43,573 nucleotides of DNA. Origin: an uncultured Thermotogae bacterium. Its GTDB lineage: Bacteria; Bipolaricaulota; Bipolaricaulia; UBA7950; UBA9294. Location: NCBI GenBank assembly GCA_964593295.1, contig CAZQHD010000002.1:1-43573 (forward strand). The letters are read 5' to 3'. This document shows positions 4,547 to 24,591 of this stretch, one piece after another; positions within the stretch are counted from its first letter, which is position 1; each line of letters opens with the position of its first letter. The position numbers were made by a program, and so were the translations under genes. The notes under the pieces are model-generated. The model made no database searches. It saw only the letters and a program-made list of their open reading frames with translations, and was not told the origin of the DNA.

Positions 4547-5189
4547 ATGCGAGTTCGTAGATGGGGATTCGTTATTTCACTGATTGTCATCGTTGGAATG
4601 GTGTCGGGATGCGGGCTGTTCAACGCAGCACCGGTGGTCAGCTTCTCATGGAGTCCCCAGGATCCCCTCGCCCGATCGGATGTCCAGTTCTCGGACTTGT
4701 CCACCGATGCCGGGGGGGTTGCTTGGCGGCGGCGGGGTCGTGACCTGGCTGTGGAACTTCGGGGATGGGTCTTCGTCTCCGATGCAGCATCCGAAGCATC
4801 AGTACGACAAGGGCGGGCCTTATAGTGTGCAGCTCACGGTGACCGATGGAGGGGGCAAGACAGCGACGGCCATGAGGCAGATCACGGTCACGCCGAGCCT
4901 TGCCGGTCGCTGGACGGGAACACTGACAGATCTGGCGTTCAACTCTGTCGGGATCTCGTTCGAGCTTCAACATTCGGCGTCAGGCGGAATCAGCGGAACA
5001 CTCTATGTTGTGAACGCTGCATTTCCGGTCTCATCCGCGTCGTTCAACGCCGCGACCAAAGAGGTTCAGATCATGTCGGCAACCATCATCTTCCGAGGGA
5101 CGCTGGATGCCAATGAGCGTCGCATCTCGGGATACTGGTACGATCAGTTTGGGGTGCGCGGAGAGGATTGGTCTGTAAGCCTCCTGTAA
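4547..5189 (+). pseudogene. PKD-domain lipoprotein interrupted by a +1 frameshift at a G7 tract (a real pseudogene or an assembly error)
   Basis: Frame of 4547: MRVRRWGFVISLIVIVGMVSGC (lipobox), then PKD strand VSFSWSPQDPLARSDVQFSDLSTDAGG. The PKD consensus continues in the frame of 4584: VVTWLWNFGDGSSSPMQHPKHQYDKGGPYSVQLTVTDGGG. Removing one G from the run at 4712-4718 joins the two halves. Confidence 0.6.
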
Positions 5190-5318
5190 TCCTGGAGGGG
5201 TTGAGATGCGGGGACCACAGGCTAGAGGGCTACAGCCTCCTCCGGTGAGGTGGATGGATCATGGGAGGCCGCCCACCCGAGGGTCCTGCCGATCGTGTGA
5301 TACGGCGGCTGCCTGGGG

Positions 5319-6638
5319 ATGAGTTGGCGAAAGGCCTCTACGGCTGGATGGGGGGGCATGTTGTTGATCGGTCTTGCGCTGATCAACGGATGTCTGCTGT
5401 TTCCGAACGATCCACCAGTTGCGGTCCTGGATGCGTCTGTTCTGCAGGGCGTTGCCCCGCTGGAGGTTCGTTTCGATGCCTCGGGCTCATTCGATCCGGA
5501 CGGACACATCACCGCGTATGCATGGTCGTTTGGGGACGGGAGCTCGGCCGAGGGGGGCGTTGTCATCCATCGATTTGAGGCCCCGGGCCGGTATGAGGTT
5601 CACCTCTCGATCCGCGACAATCGAAGGGCCGCCAGCCATGCAATGGTGATCATCGACGTGGTGGCGTCCAATGATCCGCCCCATGCTCACATCACAGCGA
5701 TTCCTCAACAAGGAGATGCCCCCCTGCTGGTGGCCTTTGACGGCACGGGGTCGAGCGACTCCGACGGGAGCATTGTCTCGTGGGAATGGGAGTTCGGCGA
5801 TGGGGCGTCGGACTCCGGACCGGTGACGTCGCATCGCTATGTGTCTCCGGGAACGTACACGGCGCGGCTGACCGTGACGGACAATCTCTCGTCGACCGCG
5901 ACGGCCTCTCTTGAGATTCACGTCACGGAGCCTCCGCCGTTTACACGCCAGATCACGTGGGAGCATCTGGGAAGATCGTACCATCGATCGGTGTCGATCC
6001 CTGCGTCTCTCTACTACGCATACATCGAGGAGTCCCGTGTGATCGGTCCGGTTCAAGACTACGATACCTACGTCCTCGATCCTCGGGATGATGCGATCAT
6101 GACCGAGATCGCGGCGTGGGTTCGGGGCCAAGTGGGGGGAGACTACCACCTGACGGCTGAGTGTCTCTTCCACTTCGTGCAGGCGGCGGTGGCCTATACT
6201 TACGATCGGCCTGGCTTCGAGTATCCCAAGTACCCGCTGGAGACGCTTGTGGACGAAACCGGGGACTGTGAGGATACCGCGATTCTCTACGCGGCGTTGG
6301 TCCGAACGCTGGGAGCAGGCGCGAAGATCGCCGCGGTGGACACGAGCGGGAACGGCAGTCCGGATCACATGATCACCCTGGTTCCTGTGAGCCAATCCTA
6401 TGCGGATAGCGTCACCTGCCCTCAGGGGCAGGCGAAGAGTTTCTGGACGTATGGAGGACAGCTGTACGCCCTTGCTGAGACCACAGGCTCGCCGGACGTG
6501 CTGGGGGACTATCTCTCCCTTGGCTGCGATCCCTGGGGCCTGGGTGCCGATGACTTCAAGATCGTCTGGGACGTATCTCGCATCTCCATGAATCCCAATG
6601 TGGTGCGATGGTCTCCGGTCTCTGTGCCCGAGCATTGA
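5319..6638 (+). CDS. lipoprotein with two PKD domains and a C-terminal transglutaminase-like (Cys-His) domain
   Basis: Lipoprotein signal ...LIGLALINGC. Two PKD repeats (ITAYAWSFGDGSSAEG...YEVHLSIRDN and IVSWEWEFGDGASDSG...YTARLTVTDN). The C-terminal part has GDCEDTAILYAALVRTLG ... PDHMITLVPV, resembling a transglutaminase-core Cys/His pair. Confidence 0.7.
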   Translation: MSWRKASTAGWGGMLLIGLALINGCLLFPNDPPVAVLDASVLQGVAPLEVRFDASGSFDPDGHITAYAWSFGDGSSAEGGVVIHRFEAPGRYEVHLSIRDNRRAASHAMVIIDVVASNDPPHAHITAIPQQGDAPLLVAFDGTGSSDSDGSIVSWEWEFGDGASDSGPVTSHRYVSPGTYTARLTVTDNLSSTATASLEIHVTEPPPFTRQITWEHLGRSYHRSVSIPASLYYAYIEESRVIGPVQDYDTYVLDPRDDAIMTEIAAWVRGQVGGDYHLTAECLFHFVQAAVAYTYDRPGFEYPKYPLETLVDETGDCEDTAILYAALVRTLGAGAKIAAVDTSGNGSPDHMITLVPVSQSYADSVTCPQGQAKSFWTYGGQLYALAETTGSPDVLGDYLSLGCDPWGLGADDFKIVWDVSRISMNPNVVRWSPVSVPEH

Positions 6639-10858: not shown

Positions 10859-11715
10859 GGCCTCTGATGGTATTCCTCGGTGTGATCGTTCTCCTGTTGA
10901 TCGGATACAGCCTGCTGACGTTCACCGTGGACGAAACGCAGAAGGCGGCGGTATTGAGGTTCGGGGAGATCGTCCGGCTTGTGGAGACCCCGGGGCTGTA
11001 CTTCAAGCTCCCCTTCATCCAGACCGTCACGCATCTGGACCGAAGGATCCTCAACTATGATATCCAACCGCTCGACGTCTATACCTCGGACCAGAAACGT
11101 TTGACCATCGACAACTATGCCATTTGGCGTGTCGGAGATCCTCGGCAGTTCATCGAGGCAACGGGGGGACGCACTCTCAGCGCACAGACCCGCATCGATG
11201 AGATCGTGTTCTCTGACCTTCGGAACGTGCTTGCGGAGCAGACCCTTGACGAGATCGTGTCCGAGAAGAGGGGAGATTATCTTGATCTCGTGACCGCGAT
11301 GAGTCGGGAGAAGCTCAAGGAGTTCGGCATTGACCTCATCGATGTACGCATCATACGGGCAGACCTTCCGTCCGAGATCGAGCAGGCGGTGTTTGCGAGG
11401 ATGCGCTCGGAACGAGAGCGGATTGCTGCACAGCTTCGGGCAGAAGGGGAGGAACAGTCCAGGCAGATCACGTCGAGCGCGGACCGAGACGCGGAGATCC
11501 TCCTGGCGGACGCGCGCAGGGACGCAGAGCGGGTTCGTGGAGAGGGAGATGCACAGGCGTTGGAGATTTACGCCGTAGCCTACAATGAGGATCCTCAGTT
11601 CTACCGATACTGGCGAACACTGGAGTCGTATCGGGTGGCGTTGGCCGAGAACACCCGCATCGTGCTCTCCACAGAGTCTGACTACCTCCGATTCCTGGAG
11701 CGGATGGATGATTGA
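10855..11715 (+). CDS. hflC: FtsH protease modulator HflC
   Basis: N-terminal TM helix, an SPFH domain (AAVLRFGEIVRLVETPGLYFKLPFIQTV), a coiled-coil C-terminal region, and a position immediately after hflK. Confidence 0.9.
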   Translation: MRPLMVFLGVIVLLLIGYSLLTFTVDETQKAAVLRFGEIVRLVETPGLYFKLPFIQTVTHLDRRILNYDIQPLDVYTSDQKRLTIDNYAIWRVGDPRQFIEATGGRTLSAQTRIDEIVFSDLRNVLAEQTLDEIVSEKRGDYLDLVTAMSREKLKEFGIDLIDVRIIRADLPSEIEQAVFARMRSERERIAAQLRAEGEEQSRQITSSADRDAEILLADARRDAERVRGEGDAQALEIYAVAYNEDPQFYRYWRTLESYRVALAENTRIVLSTESDYLRFLERMDD

Positions 11716-11792
11716 CTGCAGGCATCCGGCTCGTGAGGGGAAACGTAGTTGGATCCGGAACGATCGCGCGGGAGCGAGGGGAGTCTCTGTTC

Positions 11793-13052
11793 ATGACGGA
11801 CTCGATGCTGTATGACGTCGCGGTGATTGGTGCGGGTCCCGCAGGGGTGACCGCCGCCATCTTCTCGGCTCGAGAGGGAGCACGTACACTCTTGCTGGAT
11901 CGAATGCCGGATCCAGCACAGAAGATGCTTCTCTCCGGCGGCGGGCGCTGCAACATCCTGCCCAAGGTGGCAGATCCTTCGGACTACGTGACCGACTCAT
12001 CCGCCTATCTCCTGAGAAACATCCTCCTTGCTTGGTCCTTGGAGGAGGTTCGCGCGTTCTTGGAGACGGAGATCGGACTCAAGATCAGAGAGGATCAGGC
12101 CACTGGGAAGCTATTCGTGGCGGGCGGCGGCAAAGAGGCGCGCCAGCGGCTGCTCGCTTCAGCCCAGTCAGCAGGGGTCCGTATCGTGAGGTCCTTCAGG
12201 GTCGAACGACTGGGGGGAGGAGATCCCACCTTCTTCCTGACGGCTCCGGATAAGACCACCCATCGCGCACGGCGTGTCATCCTGGCCTGTGGGGGGCAGT
12301 CGTATCCGCACACCGGAAGTGACGGATCCGGAATCGAGTTGGCGCGTGCGAGAGAGCATCGCATCGTTCCTCCGTATCCCGCGTTGACGCCGCTGATCGG
12401 AGAACGCCCTTCGCATCGCATGCTTGCCGGCATCACGCTTCAGGCGACGGTGACGGCCCGATCCTCGACAGAGGAAGCCACATCTCGAGATGGGTTTCTC
12501 TTCACCCATCGGGGGTACAGTGGGCCGGCGGTACTGAACACCAGTCATGTGGTGGCTCGTGCTCGGCAACGGCGAGAGCCGGTTCAAGTGCTTGTCTCAT
12601 GGACCGACCTCCGCGAAGACGAGTGGAGATCTCTGCTCTCGGAGGGGAAGCGAACGCTTCGGGGAGCGCTCGTCCACGAGATGCCCGCCCGTCTTGCCGA
12701 TCAGCTGTTGGAGGAGAACGCTCTGAAGGATGCTCGGGTCGCGACCCTGGAAAAGGATCGGCGCGAGCAACTGATCCGAGCGCTCACGGCCTATCCGCTC
12801 CCCATCACTCGGAACGATGGCTTCGACTCGGCGGAGGTGACCGGAGGCGGCGTGCATCTGGGCGACGTGGAAGCGAAGACGCTGGAGAGCCGACGCACGC
12901 CTCGCCTCTTCTTCTGCGGGGAGATCCTGGATGCATTTGGCCCGATCGGAGGCATGAACTTCCTGTGGACGTTCGTCACGGGACGGAAGGCGGGGCAGGC
13001 GGCAGGCAGCGACGCGCGAGAAGAACAGAACGACAACAGGAAGGGTTCGTGA
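11793..13052 (+). CDS. HI0933/BaiN-type NAD(P)/FAD-dependent oxidoreductase
   Basis: YDVAVIGAGPAGVTAAIFSAREG dinucleotide fold followed by the family-typical LLSGGGRCN. C-terminal GGMNFLWTFVTGRKAG. I prefer the ATG at 11793 to the track start at 11712. Confidence 0.85.
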   Translation: MTDSMLYDVAVIGAGPAGVTAAIFSAREGARTLLLDRMPDPAQKMLLSGGGRCNILPKVADPSDYVTDSSAYLLRNILLAWSLEEVRAFLETEIGLKIREDQATGKLFVAGGGKEARQRLLASAQSAGVRIVRSFRVERLGGGDPTFFLTAPDKTTHRARRVILACGGQSYPHTGSDGSGIELARAREHRIVPPYPALTPLIGERPSHRMLAGITLQATVTARSSTEEATSRDGFLFTHRGYSGPAVLNTSHVVARARQRREPVQVLVSWTDLREDEWRSLLSEGKRTLRGALVHEMPARLADQLLEENALKDARVATLEKDRREQLIRALTAYPLPITRNDGFDSAEVTGGGVHLGDVEAKTLESRRTPRLFFCGEILDAFGPIGGMNFLWTFVTGRKAGQAAGSDAREEQNDNRKGS

Positions 13053-13062
13053 AACGCTCCTA

Positions 13063-14280
13063 TCAGGTGTGGAGAGATGCGCTTCGAAGCGTGGAGAAGG
13101 CATCCAAGACCTGGCTGAGCTGATCCTCGGTGTGCGTTGCCATCACGCTGGTGCGCAGCAACGACTGCCCTTGAGGCACGGCCGGGGGAATCGCCACGTT
13201 GACGTACACCCCGGCTTCGAAGAGCACGCGCCACGCCTTGAGCGCCTCCAGCGCATCGCCGAGGAACACCGGGATGATCGGCGTGCTGCTCGTCCCGACG
13301 TCGAACCCCAGGGAGCGAAGCCCTTCGCGGAGACGGTCGGCCCGCGCGTTCACCTGTTGGACACGCTCCGGTTCCCGTTCCAGGATCTTCAGCGCGGCGA
13401 GCGCGGCGGCGACGTTGGGTGCCGGAAGGCTGGCGCTGAAGATCAGCGAACGTGCCATGTGGCGGATCCAGTGAATGGGTGCCGCCGACCCGGCGATGTA
13501 CCCGCCGATCGACGCCAGAGACTTGCTGAAGGTTCCCATGAGAAGATCCACACGGTCCGCAACGTTGAGGAGGTGAGCTGTCCCGCGTCCACAGCCGACG
13601 GCGCCGACGCCGTGCGCATCATCGACCATCCATCGCGTGTTTGTCTCCTCGCAAAGGCTGGCGATCTCGGGCAGGAAGGCGATCTCTCCGCTCATGCTGA
13701 ATACCCCGTCGGTGACGAGCAGCTTGCCGGCATCCTCGGGGCAGGCTTCGAGAACCCTGCGAAGGTCCTCCATGTCGCTGTGCTGATACCGAAGCATGCG
13801 TCCCAGCGATAGCCTGCACCCATCCACGATGGATGCGTGGTTGTCTTTGTCGCTGATCACGACGTCTCTTCGTCCGATCAGACCCGACAGCACACCCAGA
13901 TTCGTCTGATAGCCCGTACTGAAGACGATGGCGTCGTCCTTGCCCAAGAAGTCGGCCAGACGCGATTCCAGCTCGCCGTGCAGGCGCAGGGTGCCGTTGA
14001 GGAAGCGTGACCCCGTACAGCTCGTACCGTATTGACGAACGGCGTCCTCTGACGCACGGCGAACCTCGGGATGCATGGTGAGTCCGAGGTAGTTGTTCGA
14101 ACCCAGCATGATCAGGCGACGTCCGTCGATGACGATCTCCGTACCCTCTGCGTGGTCCAGCGGAATGAAGAACGGGTAAAGGTTCATCTCCTTTGCGGCA
14201 CGCGGGCTGGCCGGATACCCCATTCGGATTGCGAACGATGGGTCGGATAGAAAGCTCTCACAGCGGGCAAACAGATCCAC
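13063..14280 (-). CDS. PLP-dependent alpha-oxoamine synthase, serine palmitoyltransferase (Spt)-like
   Basis: LGSNNYLGL, GSRFLNGT, DDAHGVG, the PLP-lysine block GTFSKSLASIGGYIAG, and RSLIFSASLPAPNVAA. By my recollection, GSRxLNGT and GTFSKS match Spt-type enzymes better than BioF or Kbl. The GTG start overlaps the SDR stop by 1 nt. Confidence 0.8.
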   Translation of the reverse strand: MDLFARCESFLSDPSFAIRMGYPASPRAAKEMNLYPFFIPLDHAEGTEIVIDGRRLIMLGSNNYLGLTMHPEVRRASEDAVRQYGTSCTGSRFLNGTLRLHGELESRLADFLGKDDAIVFSTGYQTNLGVLSGLIGRRDVVISDKDNHASIVDGCRLSLGRMLRYQHSDMEDLRRVLEACPEDAGKLLVTDGVFSMSGEIAFLPEIASLCEETNTRWMVDDAHGVGAVGCGRGTAHLLNVADRVDLLMGTFSKSLASIGGYIAGSAAPIHWIRHMARSLIFSASLPAPNVAAALAALKILEREPERVQQVNARADRLREGLRSLGFDVGTSSTPIIPVFLGDALEALKAWRVLFEAGVYVNVAIPPAVPQGQSLLRTSVMATHTEDQLSQVLDAFSTLRSASLHT

Positions 14281-15185
14281 TAGCTTCTCCTTCCGTTACA
14301 CGGAGGCACGCCGTAGTACTTCGAAAGAGCCCACTCAAACCATTGGGACGGCAGAACGCGTTTCAGCTCGACGGCTCCTCGTTGAGATCTCGGGCCGACA
14401 GTATAGCGTACACGTGGAGATCGACACGTCAACACGCGCTCCACAAGTCGCGCAACCGACTCTGGATGGGCGCCGCCACGTTCGTCCTTCTCGACCACCG
14501 AGAGCACATGGTCCTCGGTCTCTCGGTAGATGGAACCCGGGCGAGATGCTTGCACGCGCTTCCGACGGTCGGTGAACTGTGTGTGAACGTCGCCGGGCTC
14601 GATCAGCACGACCTGTACACCGCCCGGAGCGGCTTCCATGCGCATCGCTTCGGTGAGCCCCTCCAGCGCGAACTTGGTCGCACTGTAGAGTCCCTGGTAG
14701 GGAAGGCCGATGCGACCGCCGATCGAGGAGATGTTCAGGATCTTCCCCCGTCCTTGGTGGCGGAGCACTGGAAGTACAGCACGACAAACCCTCATGACTC
14801 CTAGGAGGTTCGTCTCAAGGAGGGCACGAGCCTCTTCGTCCGATGTCTCCTCTACCGCGCCGAACAGCCCAACCCCCGCACAGTTGATGACGCCATCCAG
14901 GCTTCCTGCGTCCTGCAACACACGTTCGACCCCCGCGGTCACCGAGGCGGCGTCATCAACGTTCATCGTCACCATTCTCAGGAACTGGGAGGGGGGAAGC
15001 AGCTGTCGAAGCTCGTCCTCAATGGGCTCGGGGTCGTGACGCGTGGTTCCGAACACAGGGTATCCACGCCGTGCCAGTCGCAACGCGCATGCGCGCCCGA
15101 TACCTGAAGACGCCCCCGTGATCAACAGCACGCCGAGCGTGCGCGCTCTGTGGCGGCGGCTCATGAAGGCTCTTTCTCTCTTCAC
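14280..15185 (-). CDS. classical short-chain dehydrogenase/reductase (SDR)
   Basis: TGASSGIGRA cofactor motif, NISS, and catalytic YSATKFALEGL. The GTG start overlaps the lipocalin stop (GTGA). An alternative ATG is at 15164. Confidence 0.85.
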   Translation of the reverse strand: MKRERAFMSRRHRARTLGVLLITGASSGIGRACALRLARRGYPVFGTTRHDPEPIEDELRQLLPPSQFLRMVTMNVDDAASVTAGVERVLQDAGSLDGVINCAGVGLFGAVEETSDEEARALLETNLLGVMRVCRAVLPVLRHQGRGKILNISSIGGRIGLPYQGLYSATKFALEGLTEAMRMEAAPGGVQVVLIEPGDVHTQFTDRRKRVQASRPGSIYRETEDHVLSVVEKDERGGAHPESVARLVERVLTCRSPRVRYTVGPRSQRGAVELKRVLPSQWFEWALSKYYGVPPCNGRRS

Positions 15186-15730
15186 GGACGCTCGTCCAAT
15201 CCGTCGATCTGCGGAATCCTCTGGAACGCGTCTCGGAGATATCCCTGAGTCTCTAGGCGTTGGAAAATCCCCTCAAGGACCGCCTCCGGTAGGCAGGGTG
15301 TCCGACTGAGAATCCATCCATACCGACGAGAAGGGTGGCCAACGACAGCATACGTGTAGTCCTCTGCCAGATCGATGATCCAGTAAGGGGCGCCGAACCA
15401 CCACAAGCCCAGGAAACGCACGAAACTCACACGCAATTTGGCTGGATCCGATGGATCGGGGATCCATGCGTTTCCCCGGGCGGTGTCTTGGGAGCCCTGC
15501 GCGGTGTAGCACCGGTTGACGACCTCAACTCTTCCGTTGGGCAGGAGGGTGTACTCAGCTGTAGTTCCGGCTGCGCATCTTCGCTCAAACGGCGTAGGGA
15601 TGCTGGCAATCGAGTACCAACGTCCCATGTAGCGAGTCAGATCGACCGACGATACTGTCTGTAGGGCGGGACGCGCCAGCCCTCCCCATCCCAGGCACAA
15701 CATAATCGCGACAAGTGCGCCCGTTCGCAT
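15182..15730 (-). CDS. bacterial lipocalin (Blc-like)
   Basis: Signal sequence, then the lipocalin signature LTRYMGRWYSIASIPTPFE. Also YWIIDLAEDYTYAVVG and GWILSRTP, as in Blc family proteins. Confidence 0.85.
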   Translation of the reverse strand: MRTGALVAIMLCLGWGGLARPALQTVSSVDLTRYMGRWYSIASIPTPFERRCAAGTTAEYTLLPNGRVEVVNRCYTAQGSQDTARGNAWIPDPSDPAKLRVSFVRFLGLWWFGAPYWIIDLAEDYTYAVVGHPSRRYGWILSRTPCLPEAVLEGIFQRLETQGYLRDAFQRIPQIDGLDERP

Positions 15731-15862
15731 ATTCGATCACCTCTTCCCTGTCAGCGTAGCGCCGTGTTCCTCGTGGGGCAAGCATGAAGGAGAGCGTCTG
15801 TCTCCGGAAGGGGCGCTTCCGAACGGGCTCGGGGGGAAGGAGATGACGATGCGATCCGTGAC

Positions 15863-16984
15863 ATGTACCATCGATTCATGAAACGTGCACTCCAGGTGTT
15901 CTTCGTGGGGGTCTCAGTTGCCCTTATTGCCGGCTGTCTGTTCGACATGAACCTGCCCGTGGTCGATTCGGAGGGTGGGGTGTTCGTCTTTCTGTCGGAG
16001 GATGGCTCGTATGCCTCGTTCTCTGAGGGGGGATCTCTCTATCGGTGGCTTGATGGGCACTGGACCCCCTTCCCCCAGGTGTCGGTTGAGAACGCGGGGG
16101 CAGTCATGGCTGTCTCTCCGAACGGCGAGGAGCTTCTCTACGTGGAGGTCCTTTCAGAGAGCCCCTTCGATCCGCCCTTGACTCGAATCTATCATCTCTC
16201 CACAGTCTGTCCGGCCTCTGCTGCGCCCCGTCTTGTGACAGAGACTCGTCAACTGCTGGCTCGTGCCGCGTGGTCGCCTTGGGGCGTCCTTGTTCTGACG
16301 CTGGATGCGGAGGGCGAGGGACGTATCGGACGACTGGATCTCGCGTCTGGCGAGATCGAGACGCTTCGCACAGGGGTTCTATCGTTTATCGTCCGAGACG
16401 ACATCCTCATCTTCTCGGTGGAAGTGTTCGGTGACCTGGGGATCGGGAGGATCGATCGTTGGGATCCCGAGAGGGGGCCCTTCGAGCACCTCGCGTCCGT
16501 CGCCGTCGGACGAGACACCGCGATGATCTTTCGCTCTCTTCCGCACTCCGTTCTCTGGGACGCGACCGAGGATGGATTGGGCATGGCTCTGGCGATCTAC
16601 AGTGCGTCCGTTCTATCTCCTGACCTGCAGGACAGCTCGCCTTCTCTGTATCTTCTCGACCTTGAAGCAGTCTCAGCTCAACAGGTGGCTGTGACGGGCC
16701 TCATGCCCGCGTTCTCCCCGGACGGAACAAGGCTTGCGCTCCTTGAGGGGGCGGACGAAGAGGCCCTCCATGTGGTGGTCGTATCGTGGAAGGATGGAGA
16801 CAGGCAAACGCTGGAGGGAACGGAGGGAGTCCAGACCCTTCACTGGGTAGGGCCGGATCGTCTCTGGGTTGTGCGGGAAGACGAGAACCAGCAGGTGTTC
16901 CTGCTTGAGGTTGAGGTGTCTCCCGGGGGAGAACACAGTGTGATGATCATCCGCGGCCCAGGGCCTGCGCCGCACACTCCATGA
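15863..16984 (+). CDS. lipoprotein, TolB-like beta-propeller repeats, unknown function
   Basis: Lipobox VALIAGC. Repeated SP(N/D)G..L motifs (AVSPNGEELLY, AFSPDGTRLALL). An alternative start is at 15878. Confidence 0.55.
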   Translation: MYHRFMKRALQVFFVGVSVALIAGCLFDMNLPVVDSEGGVFVFLSEDGSYASFSEGGSLYRWLDGHWTPFPQVSVENAGAVMAVSPNGEELLYVEVLSESPFDPPLTRIYHLSTVCPASAAPRLVTETRQLLARAAWSPWGVLVLTLDAEGEGRIGRLDLASGEIETLRTGVLSFIVRDDILIFSVEVFGDLGIGRIDRWDPERGPFEHLASVAVGRDTAMIFRSLPHSVLWDATEDGLGMALAIYSASVLSPDLQDSSPSLYLLDLEAVSAQQVAVTGLMPAFSPDGTRLALLEGADEEALHVVVVSWKDGDRQTLEGTEGVQTLHWVGPDRLWVVREDENQQVFLLEVEVSPGGEHSVMIIRGPGPAPHTP

Positions 16985-17999
16985 TGCGCGTGTAGCTCAA
17001 CTGCGTTCCTTGCTGGTACCAGGGAACCAGCTGTTCGTGAAGCCGACGGTTGAACGGATGGGCCAACGCCGCCTCCAGGGAACCGTGAAGCCGTCGGCCC
17101 ATGTGGAGTGTCTCTAGCTGCGCGGCGTTCCATTTCTGCTCGTAGTGCCCTTCGATCGGTTGGACCACGATCCTCTTGCCCAGGAAGAAAGCCTCACAGA
17201 TCGTCTGAAACCCTGCGGTTCCTACGTATGCGTAGCAGGACGTGAGATCCTGGAGAAACCGCCCGGCCTCCGACACGAAGTGAACGTTGGCCGGAGTCCC
17301 GGGAGAAGGTTGATTGTACCCGTAGATCAGGATCTCGCGTTCTTGGTGGCGCTCGGCATACGACAGGATTGGGTCTAGCCGCCCGGGAAACGAGTGATAG
17401 ACTAACACATGACCATCATCAGATGGAGACAGTTGCTCTATCTCCGGGCGCAGGATGGGCGGAAGACATGAGCTGTCGTGTGGGTAGAAGTGGCAGCTGA
17501 GGATGACGTCCACACCGCTGGAGCACAGTTTGATGGCCAGGTTCGTGTTGAATCTGTCCAGCCGTTCGCCCGGGAGTGGACTGAGATGGTGTCTACGCGA
17601 CATCGCCCAGTTTCCCACACCCACCTTGAACACGGAGGGGGCGACCAGGGGAGATCCGGTGATGGGGTCGAAGTCGCTTATGATAAAGTCCGGGGCGAAC
17701 TGCGTGATCAGTTTGTGCCCCTGGCGAAGGCTCTTCAGGAGTCCGGGCATCCCACCAACAAACGACGAAGCGGTCTTCCGTTTGGAGATTCCGCCCATGC
17801 CGTCGTCCGCCATCTCGAATCCGGACATCCGCTCATGACGAGAGGTTCCCACGGCGTCGAGGAAGAACGAGGGCGGATCATGGCGCCCGGAGATGATGAC
17901 CAGCATCTCGTGTCCGTCGGCGTCGAACCATGGCTTGAGCGCAGCGAACCGTGCCAGATGCCCGCGACCCGTGCTCTGTACGCCATAAACGATCCTCAC
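16947..17999 (-). CDS. GT-B glycosyltransferase, MJ1255/VC2487 (TIGR00661)-like
   Basis: N-terminus RIVYGVQSTGRGHLARFAAL... is typical of this MurG/UGT-related family. C-terminal GTAGFQTICEAFFLGKRIVVQP is a nucleotide-sugar binding half. The GTG at 17999 is preceded by GGGAGGGGA. Confidence 0.65.
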   Translation of the reverse strand: MRIVYGVQSTGRGHLARFAALKPWFDADGHEMLVIISGRHDPPSFFLDAVGTSRHERMSGFEMADDGMGGISKRKTASSFVGGMPGLLKSLRQGHKLITQFAPDFIISDFDPITGSPLVAPSVFKVGVGNWAMSRRHHLSPLPGERLDRFNTNLAIKLCSSGVDVILSCHFYPHDSSCLPPILRPEIEQLSPSDDGHVLVYHSFPGRLDPILSYAERHQEREILIYGYNQPSPGTPANVHFVSEAGRFLQDLTSCYAYVGTAGFQTICEAFFLGKRIVVQPIEGHYEQKWNAAQLETLHMGRRLHGSLEAALAHPFNRRLHEQLVPWYQQGTQLSYTRIMECAAQALGRG

Positions 18000-18183
18000 C
18001 CGTCCCCTCCCGTGACACACTCGTTCCCATGAGTGTCCGAAGAATCGTAGAGCCCGTCAATCCTAAAGCTGCAGGTTCCCGGCGAGAAGGCTTCTATGGA
18101 TGCCGCTGTCTCGCACTGCTTGCAGTAGCGCCCCCGGGAGGGAGAATAGACAGTGGAAACGACCAAGGAGGGGCTGTTCAATC

Positions 18184-19121: not shown

Positions 19122-19886
19122 CTACTCCCCCCATCCTGTCTTGCCGATCTGAGTGAGTCGATTGAGGCAGGGTACGAGAGATTGCATCGCGATCCGGGCA
19201 TGCCGTGCCAGTCGAACCAGCGAGGCCCACTGGCGTGGATGCAGAGATGTGTCGATGAGAAGACGGACTCGGGATGCCTCGGCGCTCAGAACCCGACGGG
19301 TACTCTCCGGCATCGTGTCTTCCAGACGGTCTGAGACCGCGCGCACCGTGAGGAATGGAACGCTGTGGGACGCGGCGATGGTGGCCAGCCAGAAGCTCTC
19401 CATGTCGACCACGTCGGCGCAGTGCTTTGCGGCAAGAGACTGCTTCTGCTTGGGCGTGGCGACCAACCTGTCGGTGGTCAGTCCTCGGAGCCTTCGGACG
19501 TTCCCGGCGCACCCCGTGATGGTTTGCTCAGCCCATGCAATCAGCTGCTCGTCGAGCGCGTGATCCTTGATCGTTGGTCTCCCCGACGTTTCTTCTTCAC
19601 ATCTTACGCTCGTGTACAACGCGATCTCTCCGATGCCCACACCGTCCACCAGCGCGCCGCAGAATCCGAAGGAGACGATCCGGTCGATCCTCTCTTGAGC
19701 CATTGCGCAGGCCACGGCGTTCTGGACTCGATCACGGCCGATTCCTGTTTGGATCAGCAACACCGGATCATCACGATTCGCCGCCCGATACGATGGGAAC
19801 GGCAGGTGCGGATCCCTCCTGTTGAGGCGAAGGGCCTTCTTGACCGGGAGAACCTCCTCACGAACTGCACCGACCAGCAGGATCAT
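19122..19886 (-). CDS. PNP/UDP-phosphorylase-fold nucleosidase, HpnG/MTAN-like
   Basis: MILLVGAV..., TGIGRDR, SFGFCGAL and VVDMESFWLA are the conserved blocks of the MTA/SAH nucleosidase and hopanoid-associated phosphorylase fold. The ATG at 19886 overlaps the sulfotransferase stop (ATGA). Confidence 0.7.
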   Translation of the reverse strand: MILLVGAVREEVLPVKKALRLNRRDPHLPFPSYRAANRDDPVLLIQTGIGRDRVQNAVACAMAQERIDRIVSFGFCGALVDGVGIGEIALYTSVRCEEETSGRPTIKDHALDEQLIAWAEQTITGCAGNVRRLRGLTTDRLVATPKQKQSLAAKHCADVVDMESFWLATIAASHSVPFLTVRAVSDRLEDTMPESTRRVLSAEASRVRLLIDTSLHPRQWASLVRLARHARIAMQSLVPCLNRLTQIGKTGWGE

Positions 19887-21028
19887 GACGAGACCTCGGA
19901 CGATGGATCGCGAAGCGTGTACCCCCATGGGGTGAACGCAAATGCCCACTGACGGTTGACCTCGGCGATGACCTCGCGGCTCAGAGGATACTGGTTTCTC
20001 CGATACCCGGAAACCGATTCGATGTACTGTTCGAAGTAGGGGCGTGCTTTCTCGAACCCGGGAAGCTGCAGTTCCCGGTAGATCCTTGCCAGTTGGGCCA
20101 ACGGCGCTGATTCCAGGTCTTCGTAGCGAATCTCAACATACCGGTTTGCGGGGATGGAGGACCGGTCCTCCAGAAGGCGTTGCATGAGCTTTCGATAGAA
20201 GAGCAGAACATTGAACGGGATCTCCTCCGGGGCGATCCGTTGGAGCTGTGACTTCGGGAGCACCGTCCTGTGCATGTGTACGGTCGAGAGAAACACCTCG
20301 TAGGGATCACGATGGATGTGGATGAATCTGGCTTCGGGGAACAGCTTCAGCAGGGTCTTGATCCGCCCGCTGTGTGCACAGTTCTTGATGACCAGTCTTC
20401 GGCCTTGGCTTCTCACGGTGGCTTTACGGAGGATCTCCTGGTAGACGGCGCACCAACGCGAGAGTGTCGCTTCCGGGAGGCGGTGGAACAGTACGTACCG
20501 ATCGAAAAACCATCGAGCCTGTCGGGGAAACGTAAACGCGTGCAGGAAGGAGTAAGGAGACATGGAGGCCAGAGCAAACTCGTCCTCTTGAGGCGCGTCA
20601 AGGGCGAGAGGGATGTTGTCAATCAGGCGTGTCGGATAGTGTTTGGCCGCGTGCCTTGCCAGCAGGGGCATGAGTCTCCGTTCCCCCGAAAGACAGAAAC
20701 CCGGGGCCATGGCCTGGAAGGTAGAGACGGATCCGACCGCGGGATCCCTGCACAGGAGGTTGTGCAGATGGGTGGTCCCGCTTCGCCAGTGTCCGAGGAT
20801 GAAGAGCGGTTGGGGATGAACCGCGGTATGTCGAACCAAGCGACCGTATCGGACGCGTTCCCATACGCGAAGCGGAGCGGTGAGCAGCGTGGTCAACGTC
20901 ACGAAGGCTGCCCGTAGAAGGAACGGTCTGTCTACGCTCGGGTGCTCTCGAAGCAGGCGCACCCAGCTGGAGAAGGATCCCAGCGCGATCGGATGCTCTG
21001 TATGTCTTCGGTGTTCGCGTTTCGACAT
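19883..21028 (-). CDS. PAPS-dependent sulfotransferase family protein
   Basis: 5'-phosphosulfate binding loop GHWRSGTTHLHNLL, and a 3'-phosphate binding region ARFIHIHRDPYEVFLS. The ATG overlaps the upstream stop by 1 nt (TGATG). Confidence 0.85.
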   Translation of the reverse strand: MSKREHRRHTEHPIALGSFSSWVRLLREHPSVDRPFLLRAAFVTLTTLLTAPLRVWERVRYGRLVRHTAVHPQPLFILGHWRSGTTHLHNLLCRDPAVGSVSTFQAMAPGFCLSGERRLMPLLARHAAKHYPTRLIDNIPLALDAPQEDEFALASMSPYSFLHAFTFPRQARWFFDRYVLFHRLPEATLSRWCAVYQEILRKATVRSQGRRLVIKNCAHSGRIKTLLKLFPEARFIHIHRDPYEVFLSTVHMHRTVLPKSQLQRIAPEEIPFNVLLFYRKLMQRLLEDRSSIPANRYVEIRYEDLESAPLAQLARIYRELQLPGFEKARPYFEQYIESVSGYRRNQYPLSREVIAEVNRQWAFAFTPWGYTLRDPSSEVSS

Positions 21029-22731
21029 CAGCGCACTCTCCCAGGAGGGTGGGATTCATCGTGTGCGTAGGGCATTGCGCTGGCCTGCGACGCATGGAGA
21101 GGCGCGGCGGCCTCTCGAAGCATCACCAGACCAAAGATGGTCGTGGAGTAGGCGATCCCTCCGTTGGGGTGAAGGAAGACGGCTCCTGCCCAGTTATTGA
21201 ACCCCAGCCCGCGGCCAGCCAGCCGTCGGTAGACTGTCTCGCCGGTGTGGAAATCGATGGCGATCCAATACCAGTGAGTCACCGAACACTCTTCACTTCG
21301 CCAGTACATGTACACCAGACCATTGCCCAACGAGAGCTTGAACACACAGAGGCTCTTCTCGGAGCTCGACCAGACTTCACGGCAGGAGAAGCTCCCGTCG
21401 TCTTCTCTGAGCACGTCCACACGCGTCAGCCCCGGCTCCGGACGTGAACGAGGGAATCGATGGTGTCCCCAGTTGTTCTCCACCAGAATCGAGTACCGCC
21501 CCCGTCCCACCCCCTGAGTATCCGCATGTTCAAAGCACGCAACGCTGACATCGGTTCCACTCTTGCCCTGTTCGAACAGAGGGAAACGGCAGAGGATCTG
21601 TCCGTCGTGGCGACGCAACAAGAGAAGATGGATCCTCGGCTCTGCGTTGTCGGTGATGGCCACCAATCCATCGAGGTCTCCCATCAACGAAACCGAGGTC
21701 CCCGACCCTCGAGCAATGTGTCCTGGTTTCTTGGCGCCGCCGCGATCATACGGAGTTCGCCACTCGATGATCACCTTGCCCTCGTCTCCGACACCGAACC
21801 GGTACATGGCATGATCGGAGACGATGAACGCGCCGTCCTGGCCCACCGCGAACGAGTTCTCGATGGTTTCTCCCTCGAGTTGAAGTGTTCGAACGTCTCC
21901 GGACTCGATCTCCACGGTCCCGACCATCCCCTCTGTGGAGGCAAACCAGTAGTACTGACCGCCCCAATCGGGGAGAACCCATGCAATACTGTCCCTCTTC
22001 GGCCAACGCATCGGTACGACCGAATCCTGGAGGTCGTAGGTCCTCACGACCTCGAAGCTCGAACTGTCGTCAGAGATTCGGATCACCTCGATCGTGTTCT
22101 GTGTCGTGGGGACGACCGCGCGGTCTTCGTGGTCCAAGTAGAAGTACATCCCGGCCCCGATATACTGCCAGGGCATGATCCCCTGCAGCCACCAGTACCA
22201 CGGCCGAGAGGGAAGAGGGTGCGTTGCCAGCAACTCCAGCGAGTGGTCATCGATGAGATCGAGTCGGAACCGCCTGCCGTTGCTGAACACGGCGACGATG
22301 CGCCCGAGGCGATCGTGGGTGAGGGTGCCGTATCCGCCGAACCCTTCGGTTCGAGAGACGATCTCCATGTCGATGCCCAGCGGGCCCGCGGCCGTGTAGG
22401 TGTCGCTCATGGACGCATCACAGTGCATGTTGTTGACCCCTCCGGAGGCCATGAACGGGTGCTTGGGGACCGGCATGTGGGGGATCGGCACGGGCTTGGT
22501 CTCCGGGATGGACCGGAGGACCTCTGAACAGGAAGACGTGTCCGCGTTGTCTCTGCCGAACAGAGCGCTCCACGCCACGCGGAATGCCTCGGAAGGATAG
22601 AGGATGTTGGGCGAGATCGGACGGACAGTGTCTGAGGGCTGGGATGTACAACGCGAGAGGGCGAAGACGAGGAGAACGCAGCCCACGATGATGGCGGGAA
22701 CGAACCAACCTCTTCGCTGAACAGAGTTCAT
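21028..22731 (-). CDS. membrane-anchored extracytoplasmic protein, probably beta-rich/propeller-like, family not recognised
   Basis: MNSVQRRGWFVPAIIVGCVLLVFALS anchor, then about 540 residues rich in W/Y/G beta-strand patterns (GGVNNMHCDASMSDTY, WYWWLQGIMPWQYIGAGMYFYLD, YYWFASTEGMVGTVE). The track's N-terminal extension to 23037 is Arg/Ser-rich and runs into the divergent gene, so I place the start at 22731. Confidence 0.55.
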   Translation of the reverse strand: MNSVQRRGWFVPAIIVGCVLLVFALSRCTSQPSDTVRPISPNILYPSEAFRVAWSALFGRDNADTSSCSEVLRSIPETKPVPIPHMPVPKHPFMASGGVNNMHCDASMSDTYTAAGPLGIDMEIVSRTEGFGGYGTLTHDRLGRIVAVFSNGRRFRLDLIDDHSLELLATHPLPSRPWYWWLQGIMPWQYIGAGMYFYLDHEDRAVVPTTQNTIEVIRISDDSSSFEVVRTYDLQDSVVPMRWPKRDSIAWVLPDWGGQYYWFASTEGMVGTVEIESGDVRTLQLEGETIENSFAVGQDGAFIVSDHAMYRFGVGDEGKVIIEWRTPYDRGGAKKPGHIARGSGTSVSLMGDLDGLVAITDNAEPRIHLLLLRRHDGQILCRFPLFEQGKSGTDVSVACFEHADTQGVGRGRYSILVENNWGHHRFPRSRPEPGLTRVDVLREDDGSFSCREVWSSSEKSLCVFKLSLGNGLVYMYWRSEECSVTHWYWIAIDFHTGETVYRRLAGRGLGFNNWAGAVFLHPNGGIAYSTTIFGLVMLREAAAPLHASQASAMPYAHDESHPPGRVR

Positions 22732-22810
22732 GAACAGGAGGATACCCTGAGGCTGACTCTCGATCACGTGACCGTGAGATCGTGCTCTTGTCATCCGAGG
22801 GTTGAGTCGG

Positions 22811-22851
22811 CGGAGCGCTGAACGGCAAGATGAACCCCGCCGAGCGCTCCG
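22811..22851. promoter_or_regulatory. perfect 9-bp inverted repeat in the divergent control region
   Basis: CGGAGCGCT (22811-22819) and AGCGCTCCG (22843-22851) are exact reverse complements separated by 23 nt. The repeat sits midway between the divergent starts at 22731 and 22921. Confidence 0.25.
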
Positions 22852-22920
22852 AAGAAGGTTGCTGGAAGAGGACCTGCCATGGGATGATACCCGTACACGA
22901 TTCAGAGAGAGAGGGAGAGG

Positions 22921-24591
22921 ATGGCCACACAGGACGGCTTTGTGCTTTGGTTCACCGGTCTGTCTGCGTCGGGGAAGACAACCTTGGCCCAGGCGGTGGA
23001 GAAGGAGATGATGGCACGCGGGATGCCGCGGGTTCAACGCTTGGACGGTGATGTTGTACGCGAGGACCTGACAAGAGACCTGGGCTTCAGCAAGGAAGAC
23101 CGGGACGAGAACATCCGGCGGATCGCGTTTGTCGCGCAGCTACTCTCCTCCCACGGTGTGGCCACGCTCTGCTCCTTCATCTCACCGTATCGAGAAGCGC
23201 GAGCGCACGCTCGCACTCGATGCCGCCGCTTCATCGAGGTGTTTGTGGACTGCCCGATGGACGTTCTTCTCGAAAGGGACCCCAAAGGGCTCTACAAAAA
23301 GGCGATGGCCGGGCAAATCCGAGGGTTCACCGGAGTTGACGATCCCTATGAGGCTCCGGAATCTCCGGAGATTGTTGTCCACACGGCACGCCAAACAGTC
23401 GAGCAGTCCACGCAGGTGATCCTCTCATACCTGGAGACGCACGGTTTGCTCGGAGCCCAACAGTCTGGCGTAATGAGCTCTGTACGGCTCGTGGATCGGA
23501 CGGTGTCAGATCGCCGGAGACTCCGACAGGCGGATGGCCCTGTTCTGGTACTGTCTGACGTGCAGGTGAGCGAGCTAGACGCTATCGGATGTGGGTTGTA
23601 CAGCCCGCTGACAGGGTTCATGACCTCCGCGGAGTACGAGCGCGTGATCTCTTCGATGAGGCTTCCGGATGGCTCCGTCTGGACCGTCCCGATCACGCTT
23701 CCCGTGCCGAATGAACTGCGCCAGGGTATCCGATGCGGGATGGTCCTCACGCTTTGCGATGAGCAGGGGGAGACACATGGTCTTCTAGAAGTGAAGGACA
23801 TCTTCTCCCGCGATCTGAAGCACGAAGCCCAGTCAGTCTATGGGACAACCGAAACGATCCATCCCGGTGTCGCCCGACTGATGGAGGAGCCGGAGGCGGT
23901 GGTGGGCGGAGACATTCACCTCCTTCAAAGATCAGGCCCATCGCAGCATCCCCTCAACATGGATCCTGAAGTCACGAGAGAGCTGTTCTCCCAGAGGGGA
24001 TGGAAGACGATCGTGGCGTTCCAGACACGAAACCCCATTCATCGAGCGCATGAGTATCTTCTCAAGTGTGCGCTGGAGATCTTCGACGGGTTGTTCGTCA
24101 ACCCTCTGGTGGGAGAGACTCAGAAGGAGGATCTCCCGGTTGATCTACGGATGCGCTGCTACGAAGAGGTCTTGCAGGGCTACTTCCCGAAGGAGAGGAC
24201 GATCCTAGGAACCTTTCCCGTTCCCATGAGGTACGCCGGACCGCGAGAGGCTGTGCATCATGCCTTGTGTCGAAGAAACTACGGGTGCACGCACATGATT
24301 GTGGGGCGTGACCATGCGGGGGTGGGTGGCTACTACGGGACCTACGACGCACAACGAATCTTCGATCGGTTCACTCCGGAGGAACTGGGGATCACCCCGC
24401 TATGCTTTGAGCACGCGTTCTACTGCAGGGTGTGCGGCCAAGTGGCCAGCAAGAAGACATGTCCACATGACGCAGAACACCATCTCTTCCTCTCCGGGAC
24501 CAAGGTGCGGGAGATGCTCAGTGGCGGGACTCCGCTTCCCGATGAGTTCACACGGGCGGAGGTGGCCGAGATTCTGCGCGGGGCGCTCTAG
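22921..24591 (+). CDS. bifunctional adenylylsulfate (APS) kinase / sulfate adenylyltransferase (PAPS synthase)
   Basis: The N-terminal APS kinase has FVLWFTGLSASGKTTLA and SFISPYRE. The C-terminal ATP sulfurylase has FQTRNPIHRAHEYL and VGRDHAGVG. GAGGGAGAGG precedes the ATG. Confidence 0.9.
   Translation: MATQDGFVLWFTGLSASGKTTLAQAVEKEMMARGMPRVQRLDGDVVREDLTRDLGFSKEDRDENIRRIAFVAQLLSSHGVATLCSFISPYREARAHARTRCRRFIEVFVDCPMDVLLERDPKGLYKKAMAGQIRGFTGVDDPYEAPESPEIVVHTARQTVEQSTQVILSYLETHGLLGAQQSGVMSSVRLVDRTVSDRRRLRQADGPVLVLSDVQVSELDAIGCGLYSPLTGFMTSAEYERVISSMRLPDGSVWTVPITLPVPNELRQGIRCGMVLTLCDEQGETHGLLEVKDIFSRDLKHEAQSVYGTTETIHPGVARLMEEPEAVVGGDIHLLQRSGPSQHPLNMDPEVTRELFSQRGWKTIVAFQTRNPIHRAHEYLLKCALEIFDGLFVNPLVGETQKEDLPVDLRMRCYEEVLQGYFPKERTILGTFPVPMRYAGPREAVHHALCRRNYGCTHMIVGRDHAGVGGYYGTYDAQRIFDRFTPEELGITPLCFEHAFYCRVCGQVASKKTCPHDAEHHLFLSGTKVREMLSGGTPLPDEFTRAEVAEILRGAL

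Follow-up and report, generated by a model that had tools for sequence, protein, structure and literature searches.

Does this locus encode the entry into sphingolipid synthesis in a phylum from which no such lipids have been reported, and does the lipocalin gene at its head belong to that pathway? The locus lies on contig CAZQHD010000002.1 (assembly GCA_964593295.1) of an uncultured member of the Bipolaricaulota, a deep-branching, almost uncultured sister phylum of the Thermotogota. Three consecutive minus-strand genes encode a lipocalin, a short-chain dehydrogenase/reductase (SDR) and an alpha-oxoamine synthase (AOS). The window is the entire contig of 43,573 nucleotides, and all contig-level searches cover these 43.6 kb. 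We consider it probable that the AOS and the SDR perform the first two steps of sphingolipid synthesis and that the exported lipocalin is made alongside them and binds a hydrophobic or amphipathic ligand. The two enzymes are unexceptional representatives of known families, from a phylum with no link to sphingolipids so far; the only unusual element, tentatively a new one, is the association with a lipocalin. Genes resembling that of serine palmitoyltransferase (Spt) have already been inferred in ~40 phyla (PMC11334938), and if our assignment is true, the Bipolaricaulota join this growing list of phyla with sphingolipid potential.

Family assignment of the synthase

The sequence-only reading had placed the AOS closer to Spt than to BioF or Kbl, and curated models, solved structures and signature residues all bear this out. 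The two top NCBIfam matches are Spt models (SerpalmtaseCFB, 475 bits; SerpalmtaseBetaP, 403 bits), followed by bioF (383 bits), a BioF/Kbl-related family (380 bits), Kbl (369 bits), HemA (240 bits) and CqsA (180 bits). Among PDB sequences, the serine palmitoyltransferase of Sphingobacterium multivorum (SmSPT) scores highest with 388 bits, followed by the Sphingomonas enzymes (279-296 bits) and Kbl (up to 260 bits), with the cysteate enzymes SulA and CFAT (255-257 bits) and BioF (~200 bits) lower still. Over models and structures, the lead of Spt over BioF, Kbl, SulA, HemA and CqsA amounts to 70-190 bits. In the trimmed alignment, the AOS shares 48% identity with SmSPT, against 37% and 31% with the E. 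coli enzymes Kbl and BioF, respectively.

All motifs quoted earlier for the AOS and the SDR are present in the translations, those of the AOS being GSRFLNGT (residues 90-97), GTFSKSLASIGGYIAG (249-264) and RSLIFSASLP (277-286). When the active-site residues of SmSPT (PMC10196870) were mapped onto the HMMER alignment, the site was found to be fully kept (N62, G90, S91, H148, S195, D220, H223, T250, S252, K253 and R376). This includes the pyridoxal phosphate (PLP) lysine K253 in GTFSKS as well as H148, D220 and H223, i.e. the stacking His and the Asp and His that hold PLP (roles from PMC10196870). Three positions set the families apart. Position 283 is Ala in the AOS, its clade and three solved serine palmitoyltransferases (SmSPT, SpSPT and SwSPT), Asn in E. 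coli Kbl and Thr in E. coli BioF. Position 252 is Ser in the clade and the solved serine palmitoyltransferases, and Gly in Kbl and BioF. Positions 90-91 read Gly-Ser in the clade, the solved serine palmitoyltransferases and BioF, and Ser-Val in Kbl. Two residues depart from SmSPT, namely Thr89 (Ala79 in SmSPT) and Ile280 (Met271). In a neighbour-joining tree, the AOS groups with SmSPT, SpSPT and SwSPT, apart from Kbl and BioF in 66% of 300 bootstraps with two labelled outgroups (both from E. coli), and falls within a set of Spt-like AOS genes whose neighbours in other phyla are GNAT-type and CerR-like genes. Together, these comparisons support a serine palmitoyltransferase type for the AOS.

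Position 283 also bears on the amino-sulfonate (capnoid) product that had earlier been entertained beside a sphingoid one. In this alternative, the AOS would be a SulA/CFAT enzyme using cysteate and the SDR a ketocapnine reductase, and the pair would make capnine. SulA and Spt have a common fold and mechanism, the SulA/CFAT structures score 255-257 bits, keto-reductases of the SDR class act on both substrates (PMC11211663) and sulfur-activation genes lie 3-9 kb away. SulA, however, is distinguished by Lys281, which is contributed by the opposite protomer (PMC9304779), and the equivalent residue is Ala283 in the AOS and in all 30 related sequences examined. Moreover, the Spt models outscore all others, and the nearby genes make 3'-phosphoadenosine 5'-phosphosulfate (PAPS) for sulfate esters, not cysteate, and are not conserved beside the AOS in relatives. 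The capnoid option is accordingly disfavoured, to the point of being scarcely credible.

The reductase and the proposed route

The middle gene had been read as a classical SDR of the same class as 3-ketosphinganine reductases, with which its best curated match agrees. It carries TGASSGIG (residues 23-30), NCAG (101-104), NISS (151-154, with Ser153/154) and YSATK (167-171), and its top NCBIfam model is KdsR (NF049977; 273.7 bits, end to end), followed 40 bits lower by PRK06179 (233 bits). TTRH at residues 47-50 places an Arg after strand 2, which suggests NADPH as the cofactor. The protein is without a signal peptide. It is probably a KdsR-like 3-ketodihydrosphingosine reductase.

Conservation was assessed in 80 GTDB and 79 metagenome loci around AOS relatives, plus loci of individual homologues, which were scanned with the window proteins. 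The labelled close homologues all come from Candidatus Bipolaricaulota/Acetothermia, except for one from Thermotogota. In 16/16 Bipolaricaulota-type loci (AOS of at least 580 bits; locus L174 included), the gene just upstream of the AOS is that of its cognate SDR. Since the AOS is of the Spt type, the SDR matches KdsR best and the two are adjacent in every one of these loci, the pair most likely makes sphinganine.

From these matches we infer the following route. The AOS, a cytoplasmic PLP enzyme, would condense L-serine with a long-chain acyl-CoA or acyl-acyl carrier protein (acyl-ACP) to 3-ketodihydrosphingosine and CO2, whereupon the cytoplasmic, NADPH-type SDR would reduce the 3-keto group to yield dihydrosphingosine (sphinganine). 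N-acylation to ceramide, if any, would fall to an enzyme encoded off this contig. The lipocalin, exported by the Sec pathway, not lipidated and co-expressed with the enzymes, would bind, in the periplasm (toga space), a ligand of hydrophobic or amphipathic character.

Gene organisation

The three minus-strand open reading frames (ORFs) lie in tight series, lipocalin, SDR and AOS, at the positions first assigned to them (Table 1). Of the two overlaps described earlier, the one between SDR and AOS is confirmed: in the junction TAGTG, the SDR stop codon TAG (14282-14280) and the AOS start codon GTG (14280-14278) have 1 nt in common, and this start is backed by the N-termini of orthologues (MD[LV]F...). 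The 4-nt overlap GTGA (15185-15182) between lipocalin and SDR holds only with the GTG start of the SDR. An alternative in-frame ATG at 15164, 21 nt inside, is preceded by a purine-rich stretch and gives a 294-aa protein that is a better fit to the N-terminal lengths of orthologues; with it, the overlap is gone and a 17-nt gap to the lipocalin gene appears. The two orthologous loci that were measured (L086 and L088) both have gaps of ~17-60 nt and no overlaps. Tight packing is thus general, and the literal overlap is peculiar to this genome. In bacterial operons, no overlaps are more frequent than those of 1 and 4 nt, so those found here are ordinary and unremarkable in themselves, and under either SDR start the genes are packed closely enough for co-transcription.

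Just upstream of the lipocalin ATG lies GAGGTGATC, which is complementary to the canonical 3' tail of 16S rRNA. A promoter and terminator scan of positions 12800-16100 gave no promoter-like site and a single terminator-like site, which is on the wrong strand and no more than is found in shuffled sequences. Over the whole window, an Rfam scan gave 0 matches and a tRNA search 0 genes.

Table 1. Features of the operon, its surroundings and related loci. Positions refer to the window unless a locus is named.
Feature	Position	Strand	Basis or remark
Secreted Blc/TIL-like lipocalin, 182 aa, ATG start	15182..15730	-	PF08212 Lipocalin_2, E=3.6e-44
Predicted Sec-type signal peptide (lipocalin residues 1 to ~20)	15671..15730	-	putative cleavage site
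Shine-Dalgarno region GGGAAGAGGTGA of the lipocalin, 6 nt before ATG	15737..15748	-	read from sequence
Classical SDR, KdsR-like, 301 aa, GTG start at 15185	14280..15185	-	adh_short, E=5.3e-47
Shine-Dalgarno sequence GGAAGGAG of the AOS, within the SDR 3' end, 6 nt upstream of GTG at 14280	14287..14294	-	read from sequence
AOS, Spt type, 405 aa, GTG start	13063..14280	-	Aminotran_1_2, E=1.9e-59
HI0933-like flavoprotein, 'aminoacetone oxidase family'	11712-13052	+	TIGR00275, 292 bits, above cut-off
Probable envelope lipoprotein, 373 aa, divergent from the operon	15863-16984	+	lipobox LIAGC
PF13528 (MJ1255/VC2487-type) glycosyltransferase	16947-18020	-	1.2 kb upstream of the lipocalin
Sulfation set	19122-24591		3.4 kb from the operon
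Sulfation set: 669-aa protein		-	no Pfam/NCBIfam match
Sulfation set: sulfotransferase		-	PF13469
Sulfation set: HpnG-like nucleoside phosphorylase		-	
Fused adenosine 5'-phosphosulfate (APS) kinase/ATP sulfurylase (PAPS synthase)			divergent from the minus-strand genes of the sulfation set
Fusion of NosD/right-handed beta-helix and OpuAC domains, 778 aa	38847-41183	-	
Two PKD-domain proteins	4584-6638	+	
~255-aa secreted protein	L091 4209-5057		between lipocalin and SDR
~255-aa secreted protein	L087 4444-5079		between lipocalin and SDR
~255-aa secreted protein	L171 5043-5810		beside unlinked lipocalin
~255-aa secreted protein	L172 5030-5806		beside unlinked lipocalin
~342-aa protein	L086 3342-4370		directly upstream of the lipocalin
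~342-aa protein	L088 416-1444		directly upstream of the lipocalin
~342-aa protein	L091 2587-3642		directly upstream of the lipocalin
Acetyltransf_3 GNAT, 180 aa	L174 6232-6774		8 nt past the AOS stop, same strand
PF13528 homologue	L085 1-452		190 bits
Zinc dehydrogenase, 408 aa	L098 7840-9117	-	converges on the AOS

The lipocalin

The first gene had been described as a Blc-type lipocalin, a lipid-binding envelope protein. The barrel fold of this description stands; the Blc-like lipoprotein nature does not. The PF08212 match covers model positions 1-146 of 146, and among PDB sequences Arabidopsis TIL matches best with 103 bits, ahead of E. coli Blc with ~66 bits (32% identity). In an AlphaFold model (pLDDT 87), eight strands are accompanied by a C-terminal helix; the top Foldseek matches of this model are Blc (including the vaccenic-acid complex), Arabidopsis TIL and ApoD, with TM scores of 0.75-0.93 and E ~1e-13 against Blc. 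The protein thus has in common with Blc and plant TIL (PF08212; PDB 1QWD, 2ACO and 8WB2) the eight-stranded calyx, the C-terminal helix, the G-x-W-Y motif and export.

The N-terminus has the features of a signal peptide, namely a charged MR, a hydrophobic stretch (Kyte-Doolittle up to 2.5) and an end of the form ...GGLA/RP, and in the AlphaFold model residues 3-14 form a helix of their own. The lipocalin has no L-x-[GAS]-C lipobox: the position of VVAC|S in Blc reads A-R-P here and A-A-D/E in orthologues, whose signal regions close with AAD, AAE or ASE and lack a conserved Cys where Blc has its lipobox. With the lipobox cysteine missing, the lipocalin is probably soluble in the periplasm rather than anchored to the outer membrane as a lipoprotein. 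Such a compartment exists, as Bipolaricaulota are diderms with a toga-like outer membrane (10.1101/2025.11.21.689855; 10.1101/2021.05.31.446380). Taken with the modelled fold, this makes the protein probably an exported binder of hydrophobic ligands, soluble in the periplasm.

Two further features distinguish the lipocalin from Blc. One is an aromatic loop (RFLGLWWFG) that is 5 residues longer, and the other a clade-specific pair of cysteines. Both are invariant among 41 aligned Bipolaricaulota-type homologues; with E. coli Blc included, Cys52 proves not to be conserved there, and Cys74 becomes only nearly invariant. The pattern suggests a disulfide between Cys52 and Cys74.

The lipocalin also differs from Blc and TIL in being genetically linked to sphingoid-base enzymes in some genomes. 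The sequence-only reading knew of no lipocalin coupled to such enzymes, and a full-text search likewise returned no paper linking a lipocalin to a bacterial Spt.

Conservation of the lipocalin linkage

The arrangement lipocalin-(x)-SDR-AOS is found in 5/8 close relatives with enough upstream DNA (the window, L086, L087, L088 and L091). The linkage is real and recurrent, but it occurs in a single Bipolaricaulota sub-lineage, where it is labile as well. Given this restriction and lability, the earlier proposal that the lipocalin chaperones the product of the enzymes stays speculation. Two candidates did not hold up. The AOS-linked lipocalin is not a distinct paralogue, given that orthologues resemble the window protein to the same degree whether linked or not (59-65% identity), and a 186-aa ORF upstream of the SDR in L002, considered as a diverged lipocalin, was found not to be one.

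Within the Spt locus as well as away from it, the Bipolaricaulota lipocalin is followed by a secreted protein of ~255 aa that belongs to no Pfam or NCBIfam family (pairwise identities of 40-51%; Table 1); no homologue was found in the window. The lipocalin and this protein may form a two-gene envelope module. Three of the loci with a linked lipocalin (Table 1) have a second conserved protein, of ~342 aa, immediately before the lipocalin; it is absent from the window. Small Acetyltransf_3 GNATs occur near the loci of relatives (L174, L001 and L086), in L174 starting directly behind the AOS; no homologue of these was found in the window.

Counter-evidence and alternative readings

Several observations weigh against a sphingolipid operon and are gathered here, beginning with the enzymes. 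The AOS misses the equivalog cut-offs of the Spt models (NF047600, 475.4 vs 640 bits; NF047599, 402.7 vs 500 bits; NF047603, 323.5 vs 670 bits) and likewise those of BioF (TIGR00858, 383 vs 426 bits) and Kbl (NF005394, 369 vs 460 bits). All curated equivalog cut-offs being missed, the assignment is one of best hits and not of curated membership. Bootstrap support for the split between Spt and Kbl/BioF is moderate, with few outgroups. The SDR is below the KdsR cut-off (273.7 vs 400 bits), and keto-reductases of this type are promiscuous between keto-sphinganine and keto-capnine (PMC11211663), so that the assignment of a substrate to the SDR rests on its partner AOS.

The missed Spt cut-offs and the still high scores of bioF (383 bits) and Kbl (369 bits) speak for a housekeeping BioF or Kbl, or a CqsA-like signal synthase, next to an unrelated SDR. 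In the same direction point a flavoprotein of the 'aminoacetone oxidase family' that converges on the AOS with 10 nt between the stops, and a medium-chain dehydrogenase/reductase (MDR) with a weak best match to Tdh (137 vs 380 bits) in some sister-group loci. We nevertheless regard this as very improbable. The bioF and Kbl cut-offs are missed too, at lower scores, the signature residues are unlike both, CqsA reaches only 180 bits, and the flavoprotein gene is on the other strand and syntenic among close relatives only. A check for bioA, bioB, bioD and tdh, proposed earlier for the whole genome, covered the window and the annotated flanks of relatives, and none of the four was found there; E. 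coli bioF and kbl do lie in bio/tdh operons. A window protein with AAA_26 and DRTGG domains is presumably the N-terminal part of a phosphotransacetylase and not BioD.

Within an Spt assignment, the preference of the AOS for Ser versus Ala or Gly cannot be read from the sequence. With Ala or Gly as substrate, the pair would make bases of the 1-deoxysphinganine type, like the 1-deoxyceramides of anoxic waters. According to PMC10196870, Spt enzymes take Ala and Gly at low efficiency. The Black Sea is rich in 1-deoxyceramides, in part sulfated, from unidentified anaerobic bacteria (PMC11334938), and Thr89 replaces Ala79 of SmSPT, a residue that touches the substrate side chain through a water (PMC10196870). 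Yet the serine-hydroxyl network of SmSPT (Asn52, Gly80, Ser243 and the PLP phosphate ligands) is entirely conserved, and Thr at position 89 also occurs in the serine-using enzyme of S. wittichii. We know of no determinant of alanine preference, and we judge such a product improbable.

As to the pathway as a whole, no gene for a ceramide synthase, an ACP or an acyl-ACP synthetase is present on the 43.6 kb contig, and searches of the window with representatives of bCerS-like GNATs and CerR-like extended SDRs from other phyla gave no matches. No paper was found in the literature that contains both 'Bipolaricaulota' and 'sphingolipid', no sphingolipid is reported from the phylum, and the paper on its first isolate does not mention sphingolipids (10.1101/2025.11.21.689855). 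Nor are Bipolaricaulota mentioned in the available part of the supplements of PMC11334938.

The remaining points concern the lipocalin. It misses the cut-off of the Blc model NF007786 (92 vs 267 bits). No lipocalin lies upstream of the SDR-AOS pair in 3/8 close relatives (L001, L085 and L089), nor upstream of the AOS in any of ~150 more distant AOS loci, so that the link occurs in no other phylum. Orthologues at unrelated loci (L170-L173) fall within the same 59-65% identity range as the linked ones, and on ERZ21869525 contig_30 (L174) the lipocalin is ~25 kb from SDR-AOS. In addition, the lipocalin has a conserved partner of its own, the ~255-aa secreted protein, inside (L091 and L087) and outside (L171 and L172) the Spt locus. 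These facts are what one would see if the pair made sphinganine and the lipocalin were an independent, general envelope lipid binder, co-transcribed by chance in this sub-lineage. Lipocalins of the Blc, TIL and ApoD type bind fatty acids, lysolipids, hydrocarbons or tetrapyrroles. A cultured Bipolaricaulota isolate takes up hexadecane via the toga (10.1101/2025.11.21.689855), so carriers for hydrophobic molecules are expected anyway. Chance association is opposed by the retention of lipocalin-(x)-SDR-AOS on five independent contigs with AOS only 72-78% identical, and by the abutting or overlapping genes of the window, between which the scan found no promoter-like site. We hold an independent lipocalin to be about evenly poised between true and false.

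Within our preferred reading, that of two sphingolipid enzymes with a lipocalin made alongside, the ligand of the lipocalin may be a sphingoid base or a derived sphingolipid, which we regard as possible while leaning against it. A still more specific role, as soluble periplasmic carrier that would collect the sphingoid base or sphingolipid at the inner membrane and bring it to the toga-like outer membrane, seems to us rather unlikely; the ~255-aa secreted protein could be the partner of the lipocalin in such transport. The periplasmic leg of bacterial sphingolipid transport is stated to be still unknown (PMC11087976; 10.64898/2026.04.12.717747), and if the carrier role is true, the lipocalin would be the first candidate for it. 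It is an easily testable candidate for the crossing of the periplasm by sphingolipids, and the genomic evidence for that role is thin.

Comparison with known systems

With SmSPT (PDB 3A2B and 8GUH; NF047600), the AOS has in common the format of a soluble homodimer-type enzyme of ~400 aa, the TFSKS motif with the PLP lysine, the His/Asp/His triad, the contacts to the serine carboxylate and hydroxyl, and Ala at the site of SulA Lys281. It differs in its score (475 bits against a cut-off of 640), in the two substitutions Thr89 and Ile280, and in its origin from a Terrabacteria-side diderm phylum not known for sphingolipids.

The KdsR model NF049977 was defined from BT_0972 of Bacteroides thetaiotaomicron (PMC9278070). 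The window SDR resembles this enzyme as a classical SDR of ~270-300 aa with TGxxxGxG, Ser-Tyr-Lys and a C-terminal extension; with 274 vs 400 bits, it is no equivalog. In Bacteroides, the reductase gene is at a separate locus (BT_0972; PMC9278070), whereas here it lies directly upstream of spt in the same operon, and the AOS gene overlaps the reductase stop codon.

With the Caulobacter-type Spt-bCerS-CerR cluster (PMC11087976, PMC11324152, PMC11334938), the committed step is the same, and the window AOS nests among AOS genes with GNAT-like and extended-SDR neighbours. Unlike in that cluster, a bCerS-like GNAT, a CerR-like extended SDR, a dedicated ACP or acyl-ACP synthetase and LptF/G paralogues are all missing from the surroundings in the window and in its Bipolaricaulota relatives. 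The Caulobacter reductase is periplasmic and acts after acylation (PMC11087976). A classical SDR without signal peptide points instead to cytoplasmic reduction before acylation, an order like that of eukaryotes and Bacteroides. If true, the Bipolaricaulota would have a compact, reductase-first route, with Spt and a cytoplasmic KdsR-type SDR in one operon, unlike the Caulobacter-type cluster of the nearest AOS relatives.

More than 30 loci outside the Bipolaricaulota display this other layout: behind an AOS (50-59% identical) comes a ~380-aa GNAT-like protein, to which an HpnA-like extended SDR is often added. They come from Chloroflexota, Balneolaceae, Rhodothermaceae, WOR-3, Zixibacteria and Thermodesulfovibrionales, among others. 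These loci (L071, L079, L084, L078, L077, L066, L074, L015 and more than 20 others) resemble Spt-bCerS-CerR clusters. The arrangement of Spt, N-acyltransferase and dehydrogenase has been described for bacterial ceramide synthesis (PMC11324152), and the Spt-bCerS-CerR layout was used to delimit the 'Spt-like' clade B (PMC11334938). The ~380-aa protein has only a weak Acetyltransf_1 match and matched no NCBIfam model, and it appears that NCBIfam is without a model for this N-acyltransferase. A PDB search with the GNAT-377 protein gave nothing useful; as its sequence does not confirm the identity with bCerS, we infer that identity.

Two other layouts were seen among AOS relatives. In four Bacillota-type/Acholeplasmataceae loci from metagenome-assembled genomes (L053, L069, L075 and L076), a KdsR-like SDR abuts the AOS; these SDRs are more distant from the window SDR, and their best curated match is again KdsR. 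In L098 and some six similar Dictyoglomota-type loci, an MDR zinc dehydrogenase converges on the AOS. The best match of the L098 protein is L-threonine 3-dehydrogenase, far below threshold (137 bits vs 380). This MDR could be an alternative keto-reductase, or a hint that the branch is not Spt.

Neighbouring genes

The flavoprotein gene that converges on the AOS (Table 1) is syntenic in L001 and L086-L091. In L085, an ABC transporter has been inserted between the two, and more distant relatives lack the flavoprotein gene. The product of the AOS is also an alpha-aminoketone, so that a neighbour of the 'aminoacetone oxidase family' is curious, although it is on the opposite strand. On the other side, the gene divergent from the operon encodes a probable envelope lipoprotein, judging from its lipobox, with weak matches to TolB/LpqB-like beta-propellers; at its 3' end, the gene shares 38 nt with the convergent ORF of the glycosyltransferase.

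This PF13528 glycosyltransferase was considered as a part of the system and set aside, as it recurs in one relative only (L085), where a homologue lies 5.5 kb upstream of SDR-AOS, beside a membrane protein resembling PEMT and steroid reductases. The sulfotransferase, PAPS-synthase and HpnG-like genes of the sulfation set were likewise considered and rejected, being kept beside the AOS in no relative. Sulfated ceramides of uncertain origin are found in anoxic waters (PMC11334938); a link between the sulfation set and the operon is conceivable and unsupported.

Elsewhere in the window are two PKD-domain proteins and a 778-aa protein in which a NosD/right-handed beta-helix region is, unusually, fused to an OpuAC glycine-betaine-binding domain.

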